From IMG/VR virus record IMGVR_UViG_3300043010_000145: 64,000 nt of DNA; one strand, given 5' to 3'. The DNA comes from a virus. Its lineage: Duplodnaviria > Caudoviricetes. Position 1 is the stretch's first letter, and each line of letters opens with the position of its first letter. Positions 1,546-49,124 of this stretch are shown piece after piece. The notes beneath the pieces were generated by a model that saw nothing but the letters and a program-made list of their open reading frames with translations, ran no database searches and was not told where the DNA came from. Made by a program: the position numbers and the translations under genes.

Positions 1546-2415
1546 ATGGCAAAAAACACAGTGAAGCAAGCAGGCGAATATGTCTGCAACGGCAAGTATT
1601 TTGTAAAAAGAGTACTAAAAGGTGGCGGAGACAGTCATATTTATCTAGCAACAGATGTAAAGTATGGTCAGGCATACTGCATCAAAGAATATGTGCACAA
1701 CAGTTCCGATGACGGTACCTTGCATGCAGGCAAGTTGATGCAGAAATTAAACCACCCCGCAATTCCCCGCATTATTTCCATTGAGCAAGAAGGCTACACA
1801 GATTACACAGTAATGGAATATGTGCAAGGAGATAATCTTCTTGACATAATTATTCTGGAAGAAGGTGGTTTGCCATTAGACAAAGCGGTGAATTATATGA
1901 AGCAGCTCTGTGGAGCGGTAGGGTATCTGCATGAAAAAACGGAAGGCAAGCCGGCGATTCTTTACAGAGACATGAAGCCTTTGAATATCATCATTTCGCC
2001 AGACGGAATGGTACATTTATTAGACTTTGATATAGCCGTAGAGCTTGAGGAAGAAGAAACAGGCGAGGCAGAAGTATCTATGGCAGCCAGTGAAAAGAAC
2101 ATCAACCGTCACCCAGTAGGAACACCTGGGTATGCCGCACCGGAGTTGTATCGCAAAGGTGCCAAGTATGATTTACGTTCCGATATTTTTGGATTAGGAG
2201 CAACATTCTACCATATGCTTACAGGGACTATTCCGAATCGGTATGTGAATTGCCGTGGTGAGTTAGAAAATCTTCCAAAAGTACATGATACCAAGCCAGA
2301 TATTCCGCCCGAAGTAGATGAAATTATAGATAAAGCTTTGAATACAGACATGGATAAGCGGTATGCAACTGTGTATGAGCTGTATCAGGCATTATGTGAA
2401 CTACCATATTGTTAA
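1546..2415 (+). CDS. Hanks-type Ser/Thr protein kinase (soluble, catalytic domain only)
   Basis: IKE lysine, LNHPAIP, VMEYV, YRDMKPLN catalytic loop, DFD in place of DFG, GTPGYAAPE, SDIFGLG; AAGGAG RBS. Confidence 0.92.
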   Translation: MAKNTVKQAGEYVCNGKYFVKRVLKGGGDSHIYLATDVKYGQAYCIKEYVHNSSDDGTLHAGKLMQKLNHPAIPRIISIEQEGYTDYTVMEYVQGDNLLDIIILEEGGLPLDKAVNYMKQLCGAVGYLHEKTEGKPAILYRDMKPLNIIISPDGMVHLLDFDIAVELEEEETGEAEVSMAASEKNINRHPVGTPGYAAPELYRKGAKYDLRSDIFGLGATFYHMLTGTIPNRYVNCRGELENLPKVHDTKPDIPPEVDEIIDKALNTDMDKRYATVYELYQALCELPYC

Positions 2416-2419
2416 TACA

Positions 2420-2452
2420 AACAAAAGGCTCGCCTACTGCGAGCCTTTTGTT
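2420..2452 (+). terminator. Intrinsic (probably bidirectional) terminator
   Basis: AACAAAAGGCTCGC-ctact-GCGAGCCTTTTGTT directly after the kinase stop. Confidence 0.85.
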
Positions 2453-2724
2453 GCATCTTATACTTATTTGTTGTGGCTTCTGCCTGCTCTACTATTACTT
2501 GGCATAGTTCCTGTGCACATTCATATTGGGTATTTCAACATTAGCGAAAATCAGGCAAACTTCACCTATGTGTAATGCAATCAGCCAAGCACAAAAAGCA
2601 GCCGAAGTCAACACTTCTCTTCACTTTTTATTTTTATCACATCACAACTCGTGTAGGTATACAATCAGGCAAAAGATAGTATCAGCTAGAGGAATATTAC
2701 TTTGGCGTCTTTAATGTGAAGTAT

Positions 2725-2890
2725 ATATGGGCGAAGATATTTTTTAGCACTAGTACCAGTCATACAAAGCAAGTAAACTTGCTTTGTATGACTATCTAGA
2801 TGAAGCAAGAATTCAAGTGGGGTTTTACTCTACAATAAGTCATTATTTTAATTTTAGCAATTGCCTTTAAGTAAAGCATATTAGGGTATG
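2725..2890. repeat. Partial (left arm) copy of the long fold-back repeat family
   Basis: GGCGAAGATAT...CATACAAAGCAAG/CTTGCTTTGTATG...AGATGAAGCAAGAATTCAAGTG, closely similar to 5116-5250. Confidence 0.8.
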
Positions 2891-3051
2891 CATGCACTTT
2901 GGGTTGAATCTAATGCAAGCCCAATTTCTAATTCTAATTCTAATTCTAATGCAAATGAAAACACAGAAAAACTAACAAAGTAAAAAGCAAGCAGTACTTT
3001 GCTTGCTTTTTACTTAAATGTGGTTTCTAAATCTTGATACTCACCAAGCAC

Positions 3052-3222
3052 AAAAAAAGCAGCCTGTGGCTGCTGTAAACATGCTCGCTGTGAGCAATCC
3101 TGATTGCATCTGATGACAGATAGCTGCAATCGTACATCATTTTTCAGACTTTGGATTTGCAGTCCATTTTATATGTCAGAGCAGTTCTAAGGTACTTGTA
3201 CTAGCAATCATCCCCAAGTACA
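3052..3222 (-). ncRNA. Candidate structured small RNA (about 170 nt)
   Basis: Lies between a consensus minus-strand promoter and terminator AGCAGCC-aca-GGCTGCT-T run; internal stems GTACTTG/CAAGTAC and CTGCAA-ATC/GATTGCAG; no convincing ORF. Confidence 0.55.
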
Positions 3223-3227
3223 TTCAT

Positions 3228-3256
3228 AGTATAGCCCAGCCGCCAGCCAAAGTCAA
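3228..3256 (-). promoter_or_regulatory. Sigma-A type promoter
   Basis: TTGACT-17 nt-TATACT on the minus strand. Confidence 0.75.
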
Positions 3257-3299
3257 CACTTTTCTTCACTTTTTATATTTTATTGCATCACAACTTGTG

Positions 3300-3975
3300 C
3301 GGGTATTTTACAGGCAGAATACATCTTGAAGGAAAGGTATCTGGGCGAAGACAAATTATGCACGAGTTAGCCATACAAAGCGAGTTTACCTACCATAAGT
3401 AAGTTAACTTACTTATGGTAGGTGGCTGTATGGCTGGTTGGATGCAGGCAGAAATCAAGTGAAGTTCTAATCTACAAGCAGTTATTATTCAACACTAACA
3501 AACACCTTTAAATAAAGCACATTCTGGTATTTTTAACTAGTAAGCATTCACCAGAGTGATTTCTGGGTATACTTGTTAGCACTTGTCTTGATTTTTGCTT
3601 AGAGTGTATGCTCTCGTGCTTTATTTCGTAAAAGCTCGGAAACAGCAATTTCCGAGCTTCTGCAAGTCCAGAAACTGCACTATTTGAGCTTTTAGCAAAG
3701 TAACAACTTTATCTACTTTTTCTAAGGAAAGTCAGTTAATTTTAAAATACATCTTCACTCAGCCATACATCTGCATCTCACCAGCTACAAAAAGCAAGGC
3801 ACCTTGCTTTTTGTAGCTAATCTCGTGCCAGCCACCTACCAGAAGCAAGAGACCTTGCTTCTGGTAGGTAGTCTTCGCCTAGCTCAATCTCTCATATTGT
3901 CATTTTATTAAGCAAGGGCGGACCCGAAGACAAGCTCATTACATTCGCTTACTTCTACACCCGCCCTTTGCTTGT
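3300..3975. repeat. Long non-coding fold-back repeat, copy I
   Basis: Shares CATTCACCAGAG...CACTTGTCTTGATTTTTGCTT...GCTTTATTTCGTAAAA core with copies II and III; complementary arms GGCGAAG/CTTCGCC, GCACGAG/CTCGTGC, AGTGAAG/CTTCACT; several perfect internal palindromes. Confidence 0.9.
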
Positions 3976-4197
3976 TGTAGTTTCTGCCTGATGTAGTTTC
4001 TTACTTGTCGTAATTTCTTCTTGCCCTAGTTTCTGCTAGCTGCCTTCTTTGCCCACAGTAATTTCTGCCCGCTCAGCTCTTGTCTTGCCCTATCTATTAT
4101 ATTCTTGCAGAACTTCAGTCTAACACTCTTCACATTTTATAGCTAATAATCAAGGAATATAAAAAGCCACATCGTAGATGTGGCTTTATTTCTTCAC

Positions 4198-4941
4198 CTA
4201 AATATTAAACCCCTCAGGAGCATCAGGCCAAGCAGCCTGATAGAAGGCCATCTTACCATTTTCATCAAAGAAGAGGCGAAAAGCACCATAAGGCATATCT
4301 GTTGTATAATCCAGAACCATTTCCTTTTTTCTTGCCTTAGCAAATTCACTCAGTTTAGTTACCAACTCAGCAAAGTCGATATCAGCATACGGAGCACCCC
4401 AAGCAAAGTTCAGTTTGTTGCCCGAACCTTCCATATAGCAATCTTCCAACATATCCCAATTAGCAATTTCTTGCACCGCATCGCTGTCTGCTGTAATGCA
4501 AGCCATACCATCTGTTTCATACTGTACCGCAGAGCTATGTTGTGCAATCACAGACTGGGTATCTACATAATCTTCCAACTTAGCTTCATTCGGCAGCACC
4601 ATAGTATCCCAATCCCAAACAACATCGCAGCCGTACTCATCCTCCTGAGCATAGATTCTTTTAGCGAATGGCAAGCCTAGTTTGTTTTTCTTACCATTGT
4701 CGTGATATTCCGCCACAACTTGCAAGTTCGGGTATAGGGAAGTCATATGAGTAATATGACCAATGATTTCTTGCACATCATTGACACAATACACAAGGTA
4801 TTCTGCCGTAGCATGCAGACAATCATTCTTCAATATTACAGAGGAACAGTATTGTTTGAATTCTCTTTTCATTGTTTTTACTGCATCAAGCACATCGCCT
4901 GTTCCATTTGAGAATAAGTGTATCGTTAAATTCAGTTGCAT
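4198..4941 (-). CDS. Hypothetical protein, probable paralog of 6542-7243
   Basis: AGAAAGGAG RBS before ATG at 4941; C-terminal GAFRLFFDENGKMAFYQAAWPD resembles GYYRFFFKNGKVDSYKAEFPD; terminator at about 4161-4190. Confidence 0.8.
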   Translation of the reverse strand: MQLNLTIHLFSNGTGDVLDAVKTMKREFKQYCSSVILKNDCLHATAEYLVYCVNDVQEIIGHITHMTSLYPNLQVVAEYHDNGKKNKLGLPFAKRIYAQEDEYGCDVVWDWDTMVLPNEAKLEDYVDTQSVIAQHSSAVQYETDGMACITADSDAVQEIANWDMLEDCYMEGSGNKLNFAWGAPYADIDFAELVTKLSEFAKARKKEMVLDYTTDMPYGAFRLFFDENGKMAFYQAAWPDAPEGFNI

Positions 4942-5087
4942 TGTTTTTCTCCTTTCTTGCATCTTCATCTATGTATTTGCAAGTTTTTATCTTTTTCTAT
5001 ATTTATATATTAGCACAGTATAGTTTTATTTGCAAATATTTATTCAATAATTAGTACGATATAGATAAGTACTCGCATAGCAAAGTT

Positions 5088-5775
5088 CGGGTATTTTCAG
5101 GCGGAGTCAGATTCAGGCGAAGATATGTTTAGCACGAGTTAGCCATACAAAGCAAGTTTCCTTGCTTTGTATGGCTAGGTAGATGAAGCAAGAATTCAAG
5201 TGAAGTGTTCCTCTACAATCAGTCATTATTCCAATTTAGCAATCACCTTTACATAAATTCCCAGCTATGCAAAGCAAATTTATTTTGCTTTGTATAGCTA
5301 ATCGTTCTTACAGAATGATTATTTGGGTATTCTTAGCCAGCAGACATTCACCAGAGCGATTTCTAGGGTCACATGTTACCACTTGTCTTGATTTTTGCTT
5401 AGAGTATATGCTCACGGGCTTTATTTCGTAAAAATGCGGAGAGTGAACTCTCCGCATTTGCAGAAACTCGGAAATTGCACTATTTGGACTTTTAGAAAAG
5501 ATACGGCTTTATCTACTTTTTCTAAGAAAATGTGGCTTAACACACCACGATACTGCCACAGGCAGTTAATTTTTGAGTACATCTTCACTTAACCACATAT
5601 TTTCATCCATCCAAGGATATGTGCAATCCACCTACCAGAAGCAAGGTCTCTTGCTTCTGGTAGGTGTTCTTCGCCTAGCTCCACCTCTGCCTAGCTTTAT
5701 ATCTAAACAAACAAGGGCGGACCCGAAGACAAGCTCATTACATTCGCTTGCTTCTAAACCCGCCCTTGCTTGCCG
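5088..5775. repeat. Long non-coding fold-back repeat, copy II
   Basis: Colinear with copy I including the distal AAGGGCGGACCCGAAGACAAGCTCATTACATTCGCTT block; carries an extra hairpin module at about 5255-5322. Confidence 0.9.
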
Positions 5776-6054
5776 TAGTTTCTTGCTTGCCGTAGTTTCT
5801 TGCTTGTTGCAGTTTCTTCGCTCCCTTATGGCATCTACTGTGGGGATGCTTGCCATAGCTTTTGCCTGTTGCAATTATTTCTTATTGTATTTTTCACTTG
5901 CTCTATATTTATCTTGCCCACTATTCCTCCTCCCTTTTGCCTGCTTCACTTCATCGGGTATTTTGTAAGCAATTTGTTTTCTAACCTAGCAGATAAGGTA
6001 TATGTACCGAAACATAGCAAGCTATGAATTACATAAGGCAGTAAGCAAAAGTTC

Positions 6055-6510
6055 GGCGGGTACGACAGTTAGGCGAAGCTGCATTATGCACGAGCCAGCC
6101 ATACCAAGCGAGTTTTCTCGCTTGGTATGGACAGTTAGATGTATGCAGAAACCAAGTGAAGTTGTATCTAAAATCATCCAGTATTCAATACAAGCAATCA
6201 CCTTTATATAAAGTATATTGGGGTATTTTCAAACAGCAGACATTCACCAGAGTGATTTCTAGGTGCACTTATTACCACTTGTCTTGATTTTTGCTTCAAG
6301 TATGCACTCACGAGCTTTATTTCGTAAAAGCTCGGAAACTGCGATTTCCGAGCTTGCAGAACATCAGAAATTGCACTATTTGAGCTTTTAGATAAGGAAC
6401 AACTTTATCTAATTTTTTCTAAGAAAAGACAGTTAATTTCTGAATAAATCTTCTCTCAGCCAAGGAACTTCATCCAGCCAATTCTCGTGCTAGGTAATTT
6501 CTCCGCCCAA
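6055..6510. repeat. Long non-coding fold-back repeat, copy III
   Basis: Same core and same complementary arms (GGCGAAG...GCACGAG / CTCGTGC...CTCCGCC). Confidence 0.9.
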
Positions 6511-6541: not shown

Positions 6542-7243
6542 TTATTTCAAATCTTTCACAACTAAATCAGGGAATTCAGCCTTATAAGAATCCACTTTAC
6601 CATTCTTAAAGAAGAATCTGTAATATCCATCCCATGTATCTGATTCCAGTTCCAGCTTAATCATCTTTTCCGTATGCTTGCTTGCTTCCAACAGCAGTCT
6701 CAGCAGCGGTTCTAATTCCAACTCACAGCTTCCGTCATCATAGAAAGTCAGGCATTTGCCAGTCCAGTTGCCATTATATCCATCAGCCATATACTCAGGC
6801 AAGCCAACAGTGTTCAATGCTCTTTTTGGAGCATAGATGCAGCCGCTTACAACTTCAAAAACGGAAGGAATTTCCAACTCAATATGCAAAAGCAGGCATT
6901 TATCCAAGGCAACAAAATCTTTTTCCTTTGGTTCTTTAGGCAGATACAAATAGTAGGTTGCTCTTTTCTTGCCAAGTGCATAAATTACATAGCTGTGGTC
7001 TTCGTGCAAATCCGGGTTGAATGCTTGCAAACTGAACAGCACATCTGGGTATACCTTAGTAATTTCGTCCAGCAGCCAGTTTACCCAGTACTGTGTAGAC
7101 CAGTCCAAGCTTTTGTAATCAGACCAGCTATACGATGCAAAGTTTCTGATAAAATCCTCATTTGGTAAAAGTGATTGAAGTGTGCCTCCCACATTTTCCG
7201 TTTTTTGCGGGTCGGAAAGCAGTTCTAATACATACATTGCCAT
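6542..7243 (-). CDS. Hypothetical protein; its 5' end is matched by the mini-CRISPR spacer at 8028-8053
   Basis: 233-aa ORF, AAAGGAG RBS, terminator at 6511-6540. Confidence 0.85.
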   Translation of the reverse strand: MAMYVLELLSDPQKTENVGGTLQSLLPNEDFIRNFASYSWSDYKSLDWSTQYWVNWLLDEITKVYPDVLFSLQAFNPDLHEDHSYVIYALGKKRATYYLYLPKEPKEKDFVALDKCLLLHIELEIPSVFEVVSGCIYAPKRALNTVGLPEYMADGYNGNWTGKCLTFYDDGSCELELEPLLRLLLEASKHTEKMIKLELESDTWDGYYRFFFKNGKVDSYKAEFPDLVVKDLK

Positions 7244-7689
7244 TTTAATTAACTCCTTTTATTCATTCTCAGGGTATTCCACCCTCGTCTCTATCTGTAA
7301 TTATCTTACTATATTTTCTATCCTTTTTCAAGTGGTATGTAAGAATATTTATGAAATAGTATAGAATAATTTTATATTCACACACATCTTTGCTCAGGAA
7401 GTTTTTCTAAAAAAACCGCTTGCATTCACCTTCTATCTGTGATATATTATGGTTGCCCTCCGAAGAGGACAGTTATTTTTTTTGGACATGTTAAGACAAA
7501 AGCCACAGCGAATGCTGTGGCTTTTGTCTTTTAGTATTCATATTCTTCATCTTCGTCAGTTTCTACTGGCTCGTAAATCTTATATCTAGGTGTTGCATAT
7601 AGTTTTGCTTTTCATATGTAGTTCTTCTCCTTTTCAACTATTTCAATGTCGTACTAATTTTTTTTGTAAAAATTTAAATCATTTTTTTA

Positions 7690-7718
7690 TTGCATACTTA
7701 TTTTATTTGTGGTATACT
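7690..7718 (+). promoter_or_regulatory. Sigma-A promoter (extended -10) of RNA/mini-CRISPR cassette A
   Basis: TTGCAT-17 nt-TATACT preceded by TGTGG; same TTTGTGGTATACT at 41478-41490. Confidence 0.8.
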
Positions 7719-7728
7719 TTAAACAGAC

Positions 7729-7867
7729 AAGGAAAAGCATTAGATATTAGGGTGCTTGGGTGAAAAACCTAAGTGAGCCCCGCACGGGCGGGGAAATCCT
7801 ATATTATTTAAAGCTAGCAAAATGATATAGGTCAGTAAAAGTGCACGTTTACTGCAATGCTTTCCTT
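7729..7867 (+). ncRNA. Conserved multi-stem structured RNA, copy A
   Basis: Closing stem AAGGAAAAGCATT/AATGCTTTCCTT encloses four hairpins; homologous to 41501-41638 with compensatory changes. Confidence 0.75.
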
Positions 7868-7928
7868 CTAAAGATGTCAGGCTTGGGAACTAGTATGTCT
7901 TAACTATTCGATTGGAAAACACAGATAT

Positions 7929-7998
7929 GTTGCAAATTTGCGGATTTGTAACAAGGTATACCAAGTTAAGTATGAAAACGGAAAAGCATCTTTCTAGT
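7929..7998 (+). promoter_or_regulatory. CRISPR leader-like segment, copy A
   Basis: GTTGCAAATTTGCGGATTTGTAACAAGGTATACCAAGTTAAGTATGAAAACG conserved with 41671-41722; ends in AGT directly before the repeat in both copies. Confidence 0.65.
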
Positions 7999-8108
7999 AC
8001 TTGCCCCATAAGGGTGGGAATGTTTCTGTATGTATTAGAACTACTTGTTGACCGTTTGCCCCGCACGGGCGGGGATATGTTTCTTGTTTCAACAATCTAT
8101 ACAAGTTG
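7999..8108 (+). CRISPR. Orphan mini-array of two degenerate type I-E-like repeats (7999-8027, 8054-8084) with a 26-nt spacer and a trailing segment
   Basis: ACTTGCCCCATAAGGGTGGGAATGTTTCT and GTTTGCCCCGCACGGGCGGGGATATGTTTCT; CCCCGC-N4-GCGGGG hairpin as in I-E repeats; spacer matches 7210-7235 at 22/26 with an AAT flank. Confidence 0.8.
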
Positions 8109-8136
8109 GCACTCCGCAAATGCGGAGTGTTTTTTC
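8109..8136 (+). terminator. Intrinsic terminator closing cassette A
   Basis: GCACTCCGCA-aa-TGCGGAGTGT followed by a T run. Confidence 0.85.
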
Positions 8137-8203
8137 TATTGTCTAACAAGATAAAGCAGCGATACCTCGACACATAGGTCGGACTTCGCTGCTTTATCTT
8201 GTA

Positions 8204-8763
8204 TCAGATTTTATCTAACCATAACATTTGTTTTGTAGCAGATTTCACCTCGCTACAGTCTTTGTTTTGTACTAGATTTTGTCTAGTCGCAATCTTTATT
8301 TTGTTCCAGTATTTATCTTGTCCTATTTTCTCTACTCCACCTCTTCTGCCAGCACCAAACATTCTATGCATCAGCATTATACCCATACTATGATATTCTG
8401 CACCACCAGTAGAAGCACAGCAATCCTCTATTACAATAGGAATAATACCCGCATCCCAGAGCGAAATAGCACAGGCAAGCACACAAATTCCCAGCTATGC
8501 AAAGCAAATTTAGTTTGCTTTGCATAGCTAATTATTCTGTTAGAATAATTGCAAGTAAGCTCCTGTTCCGTAGCAGATTCCATTTTCATCCAACCTATTG
8601 CTTTTTCGTAGATACTTCCTTGTTCATTCTTGAATTGGGTACAAATTACGGTATCAAATTTCTTATTAGCAACCAGCTTCTGTATTCTTTCTGCACAAAC
8701 TTTTGTGTTTTCGTCTAAAAGAAAGCCTTGTTGTACATCTACAATCAGTAATATCTTCTGCAT
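8204..8763 (-). pseudogene. Isochorismatase/cysteine hydrolase family gene disrupted by a palindromic insert
   Basis: N-part MQKILLIVDVQQGF and C-part CVLACAISLWDAGIIPIVIEDCCAS lie in different frames, separated by a hairpin module at about 8486-8550. Confidence 0.8.
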
Positions 8764-38452: not shown

Positions 38453-38540
38453 CCCGTCATGGTGGAATCGGCAGACACACCGGACTTAAAATCCGTTGCT
38501 CATTTCGAGCGTTCCAGTTCAAATCTGGATGACGGGACCA
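38453..38540 (+). tRNA. tRNA-Leu (anticodon TAA)
   Basis: Acceptor CCCGTCA/TGACGGG-A-CCA, anticodon loop CTTAAAA, long variable arm GCTC/GAGC, T-arm TCCAG-TTCAAAT-CTGGA. Confidence 0.95.
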
Positions 38541-40145: not shown

Positions 40146-40280
40146 CACTTGCCTTGATTTTTGTCCAGCACTTGCCTTCACAGGCTTTATTTCGTAAAAC
40201 TTCATTTAGATTAATTTCCGAGCTTGCGGAAATGCGGAGAGTGTACTCTCCGCATTATCATCAACTTTTCCAACTTATCT
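40146..40280. repeat. Distant partial copy of the fold-back repeat core
   Basis: CACTTGCCTTGATTTTTG...GGCTTTATTTCGTAAAA...TTTCCGAGCTT...AATGCGGAGAGTGTACTCTCCGCATT. Confidence 0.75.
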
Positions 40281-40553: not shown

Positions 40554-40739
40554 ATGAAATATTTTGTAAATGTACGTATTGACGGATGCTATACGGCTGC
40601 TGTAAATGCAAAAGATATTGACGAAGCTATCGAGAAAGCACAAGAAAAATATGCAAAAAAGAATTTTGGTGAAGATGTTTATTTGCTTGATGGCTTCGAA
40701 GTGATGTCTGTGGAAGACGAAGATGGTAACGAACTCTAA
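40554..40739 (+). CDS. Small acidic protein, family member 1
   Basis: MKYFV..DG....VNA..IDEAIEKA...VEDEDGN shared with 41944 and 42137. Confidence 0.8.
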   Translation: MKYFVNVRIDGCYTAAVNAKDIDEAIEKAQEKYAKKNFGEDVYLLDGFEVMSVEDEDGNEL

Positions 40740-40843
40740 AATAGGAAGAAGTTTGTGTGAATACAAACTTCTTTTCTTTGGGTATTATTTTTGTAATTTA
40801 GTCTATGATAACTATTTTTTGTTTAAAATAGTTAATCTTATGC

Positions 40844-40985
40844 TTGATTTAATTGTATAGATGGGTATAATAATACTCAGAAAGAGGCAAAACAAAATAA
40901 TACATCTCGGTGCCTCTTTTAGTAGTAAAGTTCCTTTCTAAATTCATTACATTGAAAAAGTCATGATTCCCCACATGGCTTTTTC
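40844..40985 (+). ncRNA. Promoter-sRNA-terminator cassette 0
   Basis: TTGATT-16-TATAAT; stem AAAGAGGCA/TGCCTCTTT; TTCCTTTCT; terminator with ATTCCCCA loop. Confidence 0.55.
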
Positions 40986-41073
40986 TTTTGCTTGTTTCTT
41001 CTGTTTGCAAACAGTTATATCTTTTAGAAAGGAATATGTACAAGATATTATTGCTTGTACCATAATATGTAAA

Positions 41074-41274
41074 ATGAAATATAATGTGCAATATCTATTT
41101 AACGGTGAGATAGACCTTGAAGTATCCGCAAATAGCCCAGAAGAAGCCGTGCAGAAGTTCTGGAACAAATTCCCAAAAGCAACTATGGATAATCTAAGCA
41201 TTACAGAAGCAAATGAATTGAATATATGCGATAAAGACTGGAACTTCATTTGCTCCGCTGATTTTGAAGAATAA
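41074..41274 (+). CDS. Small acidic protein, family member 2; its 3' end is matched by the guide at 41757-41807
   Basis: MKYNVQYLFNGEIDLEVSANSPEEAVQK...ICDKDWNFICSADFEE. Confidence 0.8.
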   Translation: MKYNVQYLFNGEIDLEVSANSPEEAVQKFWNKFPKATMDNLSITEANELNICDKDWNFICSADFEE

Positions 41275-41462
41275 TACATTGTATTATCTTGCTCGTGCAA
41301 AGCACGAGCTTTTCTTTTGTTTTAGTATTTTAGAAAACCTTTAGATTTTCCTGAACTATTACTTAGAGAAGAAATTATACAAGGGTGATAAATTCTATCT
41401 AATTTTGATTTTATTGAACTAGTTGAATACTGTGATTAATTGTTAAAGTTTTTAACTTTTAC

Positions 41463-41490
41463 TTGCAGTTCTTCTAATTTGTGGTATACT
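41463..41490 (+). promoter_or_regulatory. Sigma-A promoter of cassette B
   Basis: TTGCAG-16-TATACT with TGTGG extension, homologous to 7690-7718. Confidence 0.75.
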
Positions 41491-41500
41491 GTATTCATAT

Positions 41501-41638
41501 AAGGAATAGCATTATATTATGGTGCTTGATTAGAAACATTTAAGTAAGCAATTTAGAACGGTGGAAAAGCATATATTATTTAAAGCTAGCTAAATGATAT
41601 ATGATGGTAAATGTGCACGTTTACTGTGATACTTCCTT
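41501..41638 (+). ncRNA. Conserved multi-stem structured RNA, copy B
   Basis: AAGGAA...TTCCTT closing stem; hairpins CATATATTATTTA-AAGCTAGC-TAAATGATATATG and GGTAAA-TGTGCACG-TTTACT. Confidence 0.75.
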
Positions 41639-41727
41639 GTAAAGCTACCAGTCAGAAAACTCGAAGGTGTGTTACAAAGTTGCGAATTTGTAACAAGGTG
41701 TACCGAGTTAAATATGGAAACGAAAGT

Positions 41728-41807
41728 GTTTGCCCCGCACGGGCGGGGATGTTTCTGTTTGCGATAAAGACTGGAATTTTATTTTATCCGCTGATTTCAA
41801 TGATTAA
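41728..41807 (+). CRISPR. Solitary type I-E-like repeat (41728-41756) followed by a guide-like segment
   Basis: GTTTGCCCCGCACGGGCGGGGATGTTTCT (29 nt); the next 51 nt match 41224-41274 at 41/51; leader-like segment at 41671-41727. Confidence 0.8.
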
Positions 41808-41826
41808 ATTGCTGCTTGGTATGGTT

Positions 41827-41856
41827 AAAAAGCTCATTTAATGAGCTTTTTCTTTT
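41827..41856 (+). terminator. Intrinsic terminator closing cassette B
   Basis: AAAAAGCTCATT-t-AATGAGCTTTTT. Confidence 0.8.
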
Positions 41857-41943
41857 TGCCTGTCTGTTTGCTTGCAAATAGCTATATCTTTTAGAAAGTG
41901 AGGTTCTGCACCAAAGTAATAATATAGGTGCAATATTCATTGT

Positions 41944-42132
41944 ATGAAATATTATGTAACTTATGTAATAGACGGAAGATTAACCGTTGAAGTGAATGCG
42001 AATAGTTTAGAAGAAGCTGTAACAAAAGCAGATTATGCCTATGATGATGCTAATCTTGGTAAAACAGAAGTTGTTGATTCGTTCTTATCTTTGATAGAAG
42101 ATGAAGATGGGAATTATTTGTTTGAGAGGTGA
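41944..42132 (+). CDS. Small acidic protein, family member 3
   Basis: MKYYVTYVIDGRLTVEVNANSLEEAV...IEDEDGN. Confidence 0.8.
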   Translation: MKYYVTYVIDGRLTVEVNANSLEEAVTKADYAYDDANLGKTEVVDSFLSLIEDEDGNYLFER

Positions 42133-42136
42133 TTGT

Positions 42137-42310
42137 GTGAAATATTCTGTAACTTATGCAGTAACGATTGATGTAGATGCAAATAGTTTAGAAGAAGCTG
42201 TATCTGCTGCTAATTTTGTCTTATATACTCAGCTTACTCCTAGTGAGTTTCTAACTTATTATTTAGCTTCCGTAGAAGATGCTAAGGGAAATTGTATTTA
42301 TGAAAGCTAG
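42137..42310 (+). CDS. Small acidic protein, family member 4
   Basis: GAGGTG RBS, GTG start; KYSVTY...VDANSLEEAV...VEDAKGN. Confidence 0.75.
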   Translation: MKYSVTYAVTIDVDANSLEEAVSAANFVLYTQLTPSEFLTYYLASVEDAKGNCIYES

Positions 42311-46651: not shown

Positions 46652-47545
46652 ATGATTGATTTAGACAAGTATTGGGAAAAACATATCAATTTTCTTTCTA
46701 ACTCTGCACATATAAATTTTTTAGCTAAAAACAAAGATTCCAGTTCTGCACCATTTAATCAGATTTTCTATAAACACGGTTTTGATGTTTCTGTTTATGC
46801 TCAAATCTTCTGGAACTATGCTAATACCACAGACAAGAATTTTCTTGAACTATTTCCAAATAAAACGGAAGAAGATATTCAAAGATTGCTTGTTGCTCTT
46901 TCGTACTTGCACGATATAGGGAAACTGGCAGAAAGCAACCAACAACTCATTTGCAACAACAAGGTAACACCTACACACCCATTTGCAAGTGTTGTTGTTC
47001 TTTCTAATCTTTCCAACATTTCTACACAAGAATTATCTGCAACCAACCTACCAAGCTGGCTTGAACTTATCTATATGCACCACGGCTGGCTGTCCGAAAA
47101 GTTTGAAGCAAGTTTGTCTGCTTATAGCCACTCTGACAAAATTTCTAACCTATTTGCTCTAAGCAAAGAAGCGGTAGAATATATTCGTACTTATTACCGA
47201 ACTTATATTGAAGATTTGCAGAATTTAGCACAAGACTTGGATTTATGGCAAGAACTTGTACTTCTTAATATTTTAATTCTCGCAGACAATATTGCTTCTA
47301 ATCTGGAACAATACAAACTTCCGACAGAGTTCCAATCCGCCACAGATTATCAGACATATCTGCAACAGCAACCAGATTATAATTTCTATGATTTTGCCTA
47401 TGTCTATCGGGTATTACACAACAGTATGGAGCAAGATACTCGTTCCATTATGCAATATTGCAAAGACAATGATATTACAAAGCTGGAAACATTGAGGAAG
47501 CTAGGGTATCAGTTTTGTGCAAAAGAGCTTGAATTAGCATTATAA
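46652..47545 (+). CDS. Stand-alone Cas3''-like HD nuclease domain protein 1
   Basis: LAK...KHGFD...YLHDIGK...HPFAS...MHHG...LADNIAS: motif order of Cas3 HD domains; no helicase part. Confidence 0.75.
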   Translation: MIDLDKYWEKHINFLSNSAHINFLAKNKDSSSAPFNQIFYKHGFDVSVYAQIFWNYANTTDKNFLELFPNKTEEDIQRLLVALSYLHDIGKLAESNQQLICNNKVTPTHPFASVVVLSNLSNISTQELSATNLPSWLELIYMHHGWLSEKFEASLSAYSHSDKISNLFALSKEAVEYIRTYYRTYIEDLQNLAQDLDLWQELVLLNILILADNIASNLEQYKLPTEFQSATDYQTYLQQQPDYNFYDFAYVYRVLHNSMEQDTRSIMQYCKDNDITKLETLRKLGYQFCAKELELAL

Positions 47546-47721
47546 AAGCAGAAAGAGTTTTCTTTCTGCTTTTCTTTTCGCTTAGCAGAAGCAAGCCTCC
47601 TCATACTTCGGAAACCTTGCTTCTGCCTGATATTAGTTATTTCTTATATTAAACTAAGGCACGAGACCTCGCTTTCTTTCATTCCATTCAAGAAACCGGA
47701 CTTCGTGCCTTGTCTTGCACC

Positions 47722-47910
47722 AGTTTTTATCTAACCGTAGTTTTTGTCTTGCCCTAGTTTTCATCTAACCGCAGTTTTTGTCTTGCCCTAGTTTTCATCT
47801 AACCGCAGTTTTTGTCTTGCCCTAGTTTTCATCTAACCGCAGTTTTTGTCTAGCCGTAGTAATTGTCTAGCCGTAGCTTTTATCTAGCCACAGTAATTGT
47901 CTAGCCATAG
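47722..47910. repeat. 34-bp (2 x 17 bp) tandem array decaying into 17-bp units
   Basis: AGTTTTCATCTAACCGC + AGTTTTTGTCTTGCCCT repeated nearly four times. Confidence 0.92.
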
Positions 47911-48041
47911 CTCCCGCATAGCCTCACCATTTTCTTGCCCTAGTTTCTTTTCAGCCACATTTCCATTTTGCCCGCTGACATTTTGCCCAATATTTAGCAA
48001 AAAACAATATGATTTGTGTAAAACTTAGAAAGGAGAACATC

Positions 48042-49124
48042 ATGAATGAAAAACTTTTCCAAGAACTCTATGCCCAAAGCCAAAGCAGTCAGCACAAAGA
48101 ATATCTTGCCAAAACATCGAGCCTTGCACCATTAGAAAGCAATGGGTACTTCTTTACTCATGCCATGGACTCAGCCATATTTGCAGATATGTTTGTCGAA
48201 GAATTTATTGCCCAATGTAAGCATTACCCAGACCTTCTTGCTTTCATTAAGGCAAATGTCAATCTTGAAGAAATTGTTGTCAGCTATGCAAAACTGCACG
48301 ACTTAGGAAAGTTAGAGAAAAAACTTCAAGCTATGTTTAAAGATAATAATAAAACAGATTCGCTTGATTCACATTCTTTTGGTTCAGCAGTTATCTGCAA
48401 CAATATTCTAAACCACAAACCAATAACACAGTTTGAATTAGAAAAATTAGAAACTTTGCCCGCATTTATTGATATTTTGAGTCTGCATCACCTACAACTT
48501 GTAGATACTTATATTACTAGAATGAGAAATTATGAAATTAATCTAGGTTCAAAAGAACCTAACCACTACATTACCAAAGAAACCGTAAAGTATCTGCAAA
48601 CCTATTTTGCCCGAGATATAGAGAATATGCGAGGGCAAGACAAATCTATTCCGCTTGTTGTTCGTATGCTTGTGTTGAATTTAGTAAAAATGGCCGATGA
48701 TTTAGCCTCGAATAAAGAAAGGTACACAGAGCAGCCGTTCAATTCAGCCAAAGTGTATGCCACTTATTATGATAAACACAAGTATGAATATGGCTATACC
48801 AATATGGCTCATACTTATAATTTGTTGTACCAATCATTAGGCAATAGGCAAGAGAGCATTTTGTATTATTGCAAGCGAAACAACATTAAAGACTTAATTC
48901 CAAAGCGAAAGCTAGGGTATGCATTTGTTCTTAGTGAAGCACAGAGCTTAATCAACTTACGGTATCAGCAAGAGAAAGATAAACAGCAGTACTTAGCGAC
49001 AATCAGCAAACAAGCTGGGACAATACAGATATTACAGAAGTATAAGCAAGATTTAGAGCAAGAGAATGCTCAGCTTAAAGCACAATTGCCTAAGCCAAAG
49101 AAGAAAAGATTCTTTTGGTTCTAA
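48042..49124 (+). CDS. Stand-alone Cas3''-like HD nuclease domain protein 2 with coiled-coil/basic tail
   Basis: LAK...THAMD...LHDLGK...HSFGS...LHH...MADDLAS; shares SIxxYCKxNxI...RKLGY with protein 1. Confidence 0.75.
   Translation: MNEKLFQELYAQSQSSQHKEYLAKTSSLAPLESNGYFFTHAMDSAIFADMFVEEFIAQCKHYPDLLAFIKANVNLEEIVVSYAKLHDLGKLEKKLQAMFKDNNKTDSLDSHSFGSAVICNNILNHKPITQFELEKLETLPAFIDILSLHHLQLVDTYITRMRNYEINLGSKEPNHYITKETVKYLQTYFARDIENMRGQDKSIPLVVRMLVLNLVKMADDLASNKERYTEQPFNSAKVYATYYDKHKYEYGYTNMAHTYNLLYQSLGNRQESILYYCKRNNIKDLIPKRKLGYAFVLSEAQSLINLRYQQEKDKQQYLATISKQAGTIQILQKYKQDLEQENAQLKAQLPKPKKKRFFWF

Follow-up and report, generated by a model that had tools for sequence, protein, structure and literature searches.

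The 64,000-nucleotide (nt) stretch of DNA filed as IMG/VR virus record IMGVR_UViG_3300043010_000145 (here, the window) contains two copies of a ~140-nt domain that we propose as a candidate, unclassified structured RNA, on structural evidence that is modest. The window is part of an uncultured element that we read, from its gene content, as giant and conjugative-plasmid-like, with a huge phage as the alternative. Copy A (7729 to 7867) and copy B (41501 to 41638) lie in the window and copy C lies outside it; the element carries at least these three diverged paralogues, which were compared throughout. An earlier note on this DNA, made from its letters alone, had taken the domain for a stand-alone RNA whose link to type I-E CRISPR was unexplained. 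Here, we found that the domain is instead the first ~140 nt of a ~400-nt unit running into I-E-like repeats and a guide. We tentatively suggest, with somewhat less than even confidence, that it serves as a structured leader, acting in cis, for CRISPR RNA (crRNA)-like RNAs borne on a plasmid, of the kind known as RNA anti-CRISPRs (Racrs) or as mini-arrays of crRNA-like RNAs (crlRNAs). That the units are transcribed, that Cas6e uses them, and that the domain has any stabilizing or dimerizing role are points that we infer from sequence.

All three units are laid out alike (Table 1). The upstream terminator of the preceding gene is followed by a promoter, the fold, a leader, one or two I-E-like repeats, a guide, and an intrinsic terminator, with no terminator between domain and repeats in any copy. 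Conservation among the copies points to the promoter and start site, the latter probably near 7724 to 7726 in unit A, and the exact 9-mer of the extended −10 element occurs only at 7710 and 41482 within the window. The fold begins 4 to 8 nt past the putative transcription start, and the leader between the fold and the first repeat spans 24 to ~190 nt. Units A and C show the arrangement of a crRNA-like mini-array, with degenerate repeats around a short spacer (32 nt in unit C, with a repeat on either side). Units A and B also carry in their leaders a hairpin (P6) and an 8-nt palindrome, the third palindromic element on these transcripts; unit C has neither. P6 has a G·U pair in A where B has A-U, and the palindrome has a G·U pair in B.

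The guides resemble neighboring genes of the element itself. The spacer of unit A matches the start of the open reading frame (ORF) at 6542 to 7243, the first codons of a divergent gene, at 22 of 26 positions; the first 15, proximal to the protospacer adjacent motif, match perfectly and the 5′ flank is AAT. The tail of unit B, which also has an AAT 5′ flank, is identical at 41 of 51 positions to the last codons of the upstream small gene, and the spacer of unit C matches a neighboring gene at 25 of 32. The match lies at a coding start, as opposed to a mapped promoter, in unit A and in the 3′ parts of genes in units B and C. Unit B sits between two members of a tandem family of small (~60- to 70-amino-acid [aa]) paralogous genes at 40554 to 42310, and its 51-nt tail resembles the 3′ end of another member of that family.

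In copy A, the predicted fold consists of a closing stem, P1, enclosing four hairpins (P2, P3, P4, and P5). P1, P4, and P5 are present in both A and B, in agreement with the earlier note's description of a shared closing stem and internal hairpins. Compared to dinucleotide shuffles, the minimum free energy (MFE) gave z scores of −4.97 (A), −2.99 (B), and −2.80 (C), and full-length folds of units A and C retain the domain. Within P1, P4, and P5, 95.7% of alignment cells are paired, versus ~40% when partners are slid one to three columns. P4 of copy B carries a C-G to A-U double change (CCTATA/TATAGG versus CATATA/TATATG) and P5 of copy B two G-U changes, all previously pointed out and all found here. 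In copy C, P1 has a G-C to U-A double change and P4 has a U·G to C-G change as well as one C·A mismatch. Across the three copies, this amounts to two double compensatory changes and five wobble-preserving changes, a covariation that is suggestive. Conservation is uneven along the RNA: the right half is nearly invariant, with P4 and P5 the most conserved portion of the whole unit, and the left half is fast evolving, its middle (P2 and P3) being conserved neither in sequence nor in fold. A plus-strand RNA is favored because of an excess of G·U pairs on that strand (6, versus 3 A·C mismatches; favoring it in A and B), because the plus strand out-folds the minus strand in A and B (not in C), and because of the orientation of the promoter, repeats, and terminator.

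The loops of P4 and P5 are a stronger signal than the covariation. Each holds a self-complementary hexamer, GCTAGC in P4 and GTGCAC in P5, found in copy B at 41585 and 41613; the earlier note had called these hexamers invariant between A and B, which we confirm and extend to copy C. Both are GC-rich 6-nt palindromes with unpaired purine flanks, the features of a loop of the dimerization initiation site (DIS) type. The hexamer bases are predicted to be unpaired (probability 0.6 to 1.0), with the exception, in copy B, of the first G and last C of GTGCAC. The 64 kb contain just 52 palindromic hexamers in which four or more bases are G/C, and among 196 perfect 7-bp hairpins in the window a GC-rich palindromic loop occurs only in P5 of copy A. 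The joint chance of such a hexamer in a 10-nt loop and another in an 8-nt loop is ~1 × 10−5 (~2 × 10−3 for any palindrome), an estimate made post hoc and on paralogues that are not independent. On these numbers, two palindromic loops are unlikely to have arisen by chance, and the most plausible explanation for loops that are invariant, GC rich, and flanked by purines would be that transcripts pair through them or that they bind a dimeric protein.

Loop-loop pairing would also allow the domain to act in trans, as a self-assembling RNA that is released or modular, forms homodimers, rings, or larger assemblies through both kissing loops, and carries the crRNA-like tail as passenger or cargo. We consider this unlikely, while giving it more weight than any other alternative. 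The GC-rich, purine-flanked palindromes are invariant across three diverged copies, in the most conserved part of the unit; GUGCAC, which the earlier note had described as a retroviral kissing-loop palindrome, is a natural palindrome of the human immunodeficiency virus type 1 (HIV-1) DIS, one of its three prevalent ones (PMC5874298); and bacterial RNAs, some shorter than 200 nt, form homo-oligomers (PMC12286853; 10.64898/2026.07.01.735769). However, all three copies are fused to repeat cassettes without an intervening terminator, GCUAGC has two central A-U pairs, which were less favored in DIS selection experiments, and in copy B the hexamer of P5 is predicted to pair its own outer G and C. 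The earlier note had suggested that the RNA may dimerize, oligomerize, or scaffold a protein; in appearance, both loops do resemble those of dimerizing RNAs.

As a property of the window at large (1 to 64000), palindromes are strongly avoided: 27 of the 64 palindromic hexamers are absent, five of these with ~22 expected occurrences each, and 14 of the 16 hexamers built on GATC, CCGG, GCGC, or GGCC are missing. GCTAGC and GTGCAC occur at the expected frequency.

The repeats of the cassettes are built in the classical I-E manner: 5 nt, then a 6-bp GC stem with its tetraloop, then an 8-nt handle. Repeat hairpins at 7778, 8059, and 41733 stand outside arrays and matching cas loci on a mobile element, as solitary repeat units do. 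The cas genes seen in the element are type I-C: they encode Cas5d, Csd1, Cas7, and a Cas3 helicase that lacks an HD domain, and the accompanying repeat, 33 nt long, is typical of I-C. Since the element shows type I-C cas genes only, the crRNA-like RNAs would use the I-E Cas6e/Cascade of a host. The earlier note had reasoned that type I-E needs no tracrRNA (trans-activating crRNA), which left the role of the RNA unexplained; no anti-repeat was found here, and the element's own cas genes are I-C, not I-E. When metagenomes were scanned for the stem and handle, dozens of real arrays came up, their period being 61 nt; many lie in contigs labeled human-gut metagenome (42 to 53% GC). These gut I-E arrays share the 6-bp stem and 3′ handle with the cassettes and differ in tetraloop and 5′ flank. 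On this basis, the cassettes appear to be mimics of a genuine I-E repeat family, and host Cascade is their likely user. In this family (L066 to L118, i.e., L066 and ~50 further loci), the 8-nt handle ends in TTTCY and many arrays share one conserved leader; the gene order at L066 (338 to 10621) is cas3-cse1-cse2-cas6e-cas7-cas5-array-cas1.

A source of the domain in host CRISPR leaders was rejected. The covariance model R1, built on copies A, B, and C, had no match at E values up to 10 in 352 kb from the 53 metagenome-scan loci, most of them I-E array contigs; no similarity was evident by eye in 30 extracted host leaders; and blastn of the units against the metagenome-scan loci returned repeat matches only.

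Under the cis-acting leader that we favor, the autonomous 5′ fold would stabilize and insulate the short guide part. The domain may have begun around a repeat, that is, a Cas6e-binding hairpin, and the palindromic loops could mediate loop-to-loop pairing, between like transcripts or between paralogous ones, or else be bound by a dimeric protein.

The same cassettes could instead serve as a decoy of the Racr type, in which the domain and its repeat hairpins would titrate Cas6e or Cascade subunits of the host, so protecting the plasmid as it enters I-E hosts, and the guides are secondary. Racr candidates are defined as repeats that are solitary or degenerate, reside on a mobile element outside an I-E cas locus, and form transcription units of their own (PMC10651486); copy A has three repeat-like hairpins and copy B has one, and the element is rich in defense and counterdefense genes. 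Against this, P4 and P5 have remained invariant even where, in B and C, the internal repeat hairpin has decayed, the Racrs described are short mimics of a repeat that have no large fold beside them (PMC10651486), and the AAT flanks, which resemble protospacer adjacent motifs, together with the long neighbor-gene matches suggest real targeting. We regard a pure decoy as improbable, less so than the possibilities that follow. Kissing loops might also join the 5′ domains of the plasmid's crRNA-like RNAs into dimers, rings, or mixed assemblies of the paralogous transcripts, a hitherto unknown class of small self-assembling module whose RNA hub would capture host Cas6e/Cascade and either give loading preference to the plasmid's own guides or serve as a sponge against the host's I-E immunity. 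This proposal is speculative, and we rate it marginally below the decoy.

Inside the fold of copy A, P3 is itself a perfect I-E-like repeat stem-loop (psiR0), identical over 17 nt to the repeats at 8059 and 41733. The flanks of P3 are homologous in B and C, where the hairpin itself has decayed in two different ways. Because psiR0 is perfect in A and leaves remnants in B and C, the domain probably arose around a CRISPR repeat. The P3 loop pentamer (7782) recurs in the P5 loop (7843), exactly 61 nt away, which is the I-E period, and a near copy of the handle then follows P5. Despite this register, the idea that P5 is a remodeled repeat was rejected, as the alignment of the P5 region with the repeat was not significant (P = 0.19 to 0.75).

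The domain could be imagined as a fossil, left from an earlier repeat-spacer-repeat array and having little function today, or else as a put-like antiterminator or riboswitch-like leader controlling read-through into terminator-like repeats. The shared pentamer and the handle copy are in keeping with a fossil, and the repeats in units A and B do score as terminator-like hairpins. Nevertheless, we hold this pair of explanations to be quite improbable: apart from the insignificant alignment, a fossil would not have kept P4 and P5 unchanged, a leader of this kind is absent from host arrays that share the handle, and no alternative terminator or antiterminator pairing is evident in the folds.

Several results weigh against the leader interpretation. 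The entire case is built on the sequences of three paralogues from a single uncultured element. The earlier note had spoken of covarying stems; with three sequences and two double-sided changes, the covariation is not significant (57 of 500 column shuffles reach the observed score) and is too thin to serve as evidence. In copy B, P1 is weak (one C·A mismatch and one bulge), and the full-length fold of unit B loses P1 altogether. A consensus promoter scan made no call at the unit A promoter, whose −35 element matches at 3 of 6 positions. On the CRISPR side, no I-E cas gene was found in the ~117 kb of the element seen, no matching host turned up, and none of 1,055 unique gut I-E spacers matched 170 kb of the element beyond chance. 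Moreover, host I-E arrays with the same handle lack the domain and manage without it; therefore, a need for a generic stabilizer or antiterminator is not evident. Finally, the P3 hairpin has been lost in two of three copies, and docking of Cas6e therefore cannot be what maintains the invariance of P4 and P5.

The least probable explanation, that P4 and P5 are imperfect palindromic operators or methylation/restriction-type sites to which, as DNA, a dimeric protein binds a short way past the promoter, with the RNA fold as a by-product, draws on the near-perfect 22-bp palindrome at P5 and the 34-bp one at P4, both centered on type II recognition-type hexamers, and on the minus strand of copy C out-folding the plus strand, but nonsymmetric A-rich flanks between palindromic centers and stems fit loops better than operators, P1 joins ends 115 nt apart with its G-C to U-A double change, and the plus strand has the 6-to-3 balance of G·U pairs over A·C mismatches.

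Relatives were sought within the element and beyond. Exact-protein look-ups allowed ~117 kb of the element to be walked, from about −44.6 kb to +72.7 kb in window coordinates, and R1 matched exactly the three copies in this stretch and nothing else. Upstream of the window, at a distance of ~31 kb, contig L013 carries copy C on its minus strand (approximately 4135 to 3990); this copy keeps P1, P4, P5, and both hexamers. Copy A is 100% identical between contigs of different samples, which leaves the three paralogues as the only diversity to compare. In accordance with the earlier view of an unrecognized RNA, Rfam 15, whose families include tracrRNA, CRISPR-DR, ROOL, GOLLD, OLE, raiA, riboswitches, and ribozymes, gave no match in the RNA at the gathering score, the only match of that level in the window being the transfer RNA (tRNA) at 38453; relaxing E to 10 over 7600 to 8200 yielded three chance-level matches, all outside the RNA. 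ARAGORN found no tRNA or transfer-messenger RNA at the RNA, and its sole match was the single tRNA-Leu (anticodon UAA) that the element carries at 38453 to 38540 in the window. No relatives of unit A were detected by blastn against PLSDB plasmids and INPHARED phages, and none were detected by loop-pattern scans of IMG/VR and metagenome contigs. The repeat pattern had no match in IMG/VR, and the exact cassette repeat was absent from the GTDB genomes searched. A looser repeat pattern gave 50 loci in GTDB; the two checked (L023 and L045) were chance terminator-like hairpins, and there were only two distant array-like loci with multiple matches. The proteins beside the cassettes (233 and 164 aa) had no homologue except themselves among 5.8 billion proteins.

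Several other identities were considered and rejected. A coding region was discounted, in that the two overlapping ORFs share just the translated repeat. A tracrRNA-like anti-repeat was dismissed, the longest Watson-Crick complement to the repeats being 4 to 5 nt (A), 8 nt (B), and 6 nt (C). We also rejected a CreT-like, tRNA-sequestering toxin RNA, for which a Met-Ile-stop mini-frame on the 3′ side of the P4 stem had been a candidate in A and C; the frame has no ribosome-binding site, lies inside a stem, and is replaced in B by a 12-codon frame, and AUA is presumably not rare in an AT-rich genome. A single-strand origin or single-stranded DNA promoter of a conjugative plasmid was ruled out, with C on the opposite strand and all copies tied to a promoter and repeats, as was a miniature inverted-repeat transposable element with terminal inverted repeats, homology between the copies running past P1 on both sides.

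Table 1. Features of units A and B and of the surrounding element (window coordinates unless a contig is named)
Feature	Position	Strand	Remarks
Structured RNA domain, copy A (candidate)	7729..7867	+	MFE −49.8 kcal/mol, z −4.97; model R1, 163 bits
P1 closing stem, copy A	7729-7741/7856-7867	+	Kept in consensus fold
P2, copy A	7754-7761/7767-7774	+	Predicted fold
P3 (psiR0), copy A	7778-7783/7788-7793	+	Repeat hairpin within fold
psiR0, perfect I-E-like repeat stem-loop inside copy A	7778..7794	+	Exact 17-nt match to repeats at 8059 and 41733
P4, copy A	7798-7809/7820-7831	+	Kept in consensus fold
P4 loop with self-complementary GCTAGC (7813-7818)	7810..7819	+	10 nt; invariant in A, B, and C; unpaired probability 0.92-1.0
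P5, copy A	7833-7839/7848-7854	+	Kept in consensus fold
P5 loop with self-complementary GTGCAC (7841-7846)	7840..7847	+	8 nt; invariant in A, B, and C; unpaired probability 0.63-0.99 (A)
Putative promoter, unit A	7690..7718	+	TTG-type −35 at 7690-7695, 17-nt spacer, TG-extended −10 at 7710-7718; conserved in three copies
Leader hairpin P6 (7929-7936/7945-7952) and 8-nt palindrome (7955-7962), unit A	7929..7962	+	A-B alignment
psiR1, degenerate 29-nt I-E-like repeat keeping 3′ handle	7999..8027	+	
Spacer of unit A, 26 nt	8028..8053	+	Match to 7235-7210, minus strand
R2, I-E-like repeat, hairpin intact, small insertion in handle	8054..8084	+	
Intrinsic terminator, unit A	8108..8137	+	Terminator scan
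Putative promoter, unit B	41463..41490	+	Conservation with units A and C
Structured RNA domain, copy B (candidate)	41501..41638	+	MFE −34.3 kcal/mol, z −2.99; model R1, 135 bits
P4, copy B	41570-41581/41592-41603	+	
P5, copy B	41605-41611/41620-41626	+	
Leader hairpin P6 (41671-41694) and palindrome, unit B	41671..41704	+	A-B alignment
Single I-E-like repeat, unit B	41728..41756	+	
Guide-like tail of unit B, 51 nt	41757..41807	+	Match to 41224-41274
Intrinsic terminator, unit B	41827..41856	+	Terminator scan
Type I-C array and cas genes	L001 14060-15110 and 15142-20951 (window ~65200-72100)		Just beyond window end
Tandem repeat arrays	235-476, 544-624, 1001-1074, 5765-5818, 8190-8318, 47710-47923		

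The longest contig of the element measures 576,898 bp. Its genes include conjugation-type ATPases (one FtsK/SpoIIIE-like and one DUF87), giant SpaA-type and DUF285 surface proteins, and many methylases, along with TerD, TelA, and a PARP-like protein. On L007, a C5 DNA methylase (926 to 2887) is split by an intein, and nearby lie TelA, a WGR-PARP protein, two D12-class methylases, an AlwI-type restriction enzyme, and two TerD proteins. One I-C spacer (~L001 14437 to 14470) has ~18 nt in common with a neighboring gene at L001 13420 to 13460. Two stand-alone Cas3 HD-domain proteins are encoded at 46652 to 47545 and 48009 to 49124, ~17 kb from the HD-less I-C cas3, with a 34-bp tandem repeat array between them. 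Intergenic tandem repeats of 16 to 17 bp and 33 to 34 bp are iteron-like, and some share a consensus between distant sites. A further intergenic repeat family of ~260 nt, with GC-rich hairpins, is found at 3470 to 3730, 5270 to 5530, 6166 to 6426, and 40178 to 40247, within and beyond a low-coding stretch at 2400 to 6500; it may be another small-RNA family.

Mobile elements fight or hijack CRISPR-Cas with repeat-mimicking RNAs, such as Racrs and viral crlRNAs, and a conserved folded domain fused to such RNAs has been undescribed. If our interpretation is true, repeat-mimicking RNAs can be equipped with an extra structural module that serves stability, loading, or self-assembly, and a small candidate joins the short list of natural RNAs that may oligomerize by RNA-RNA contacts. 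The context is unusual as well: Cas-less, I-E-type cassettes with guides resembling neighbor genes, on a giant element with its own type I-C system.

Among self-associating RNAs, the HIV-1 DIS (PMC5874298) resembles P4 and P5 in its 8- to 10-nt loop, GC-rich 6-nt palindrome, and unpaired purine flanks. The RNA described here differs in having no homology to it, a bacterial context, and two different palindromic loops, and its dimerization is putative. The bacterial and phage noncoding RNAs ROOL, GOLLD, OLE, and manA (PMC12286853; 10.64898/2026.07.01.735769) form homo-oligomers through RNA-RNA contacts that include kissing loops, and some are shorter than 200 nt; unlike these, the present RNA has no Rfam match, is fused to CRISPR-like cassettes, and is known from a single element. 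Transcribed leaders of type II and VI systems, with their leader-repeat hairpins (PMC13187072, PMC12080349), are similar in that their RNA ahead of the first repeat is transcribed and has a structure that affects crRNA production. Those leaders pair with the first repeat, whereas here the longest complementarity to the repeat is 4 to 8 nt and the distance is 24 to ~190 nt.

The cassettes themselves have closer counterparts. Virus-borne mini-CRISPR arrays (PMC6858448) are likewise Cas-less one-spacer arrays whose spacers resemble alleles of the element's kind of genes; they differ in belonging to archaeal viruses and are not known to have a conserved leader RNA. The crRNA-like RNAs and viral Cracr arrays (CreA/CreR; 10.1101/2024.10.29.618823; 10.1101/2023.03.03.530964) share with our units the order of degenerate repeat, short spacer, and repeat, and crlRNA arrays on phages and plasmids include type I-E ones with 21- to 24-nt spacers (10.1101/2024.10.29.618823). 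Known viral crlRNAs target host cas or toxin promoters, whereas the guides here match the element's own neighboring genes, and the sections consulted report no structured 5′ domain for crlRNA arrays (10.1101/2024.10.29.618823; 10.1101/2023.03.03.530964). Racrs (PMC10651486) are also repeat mimics on mobile elements, located away from matching cas genes in small noncoding units of their own. No 140-nt conserved multistem domain with palindromic loops is described for them, and the units of this element are further set apart from Racrs by guides with long matches to neighboring genes.

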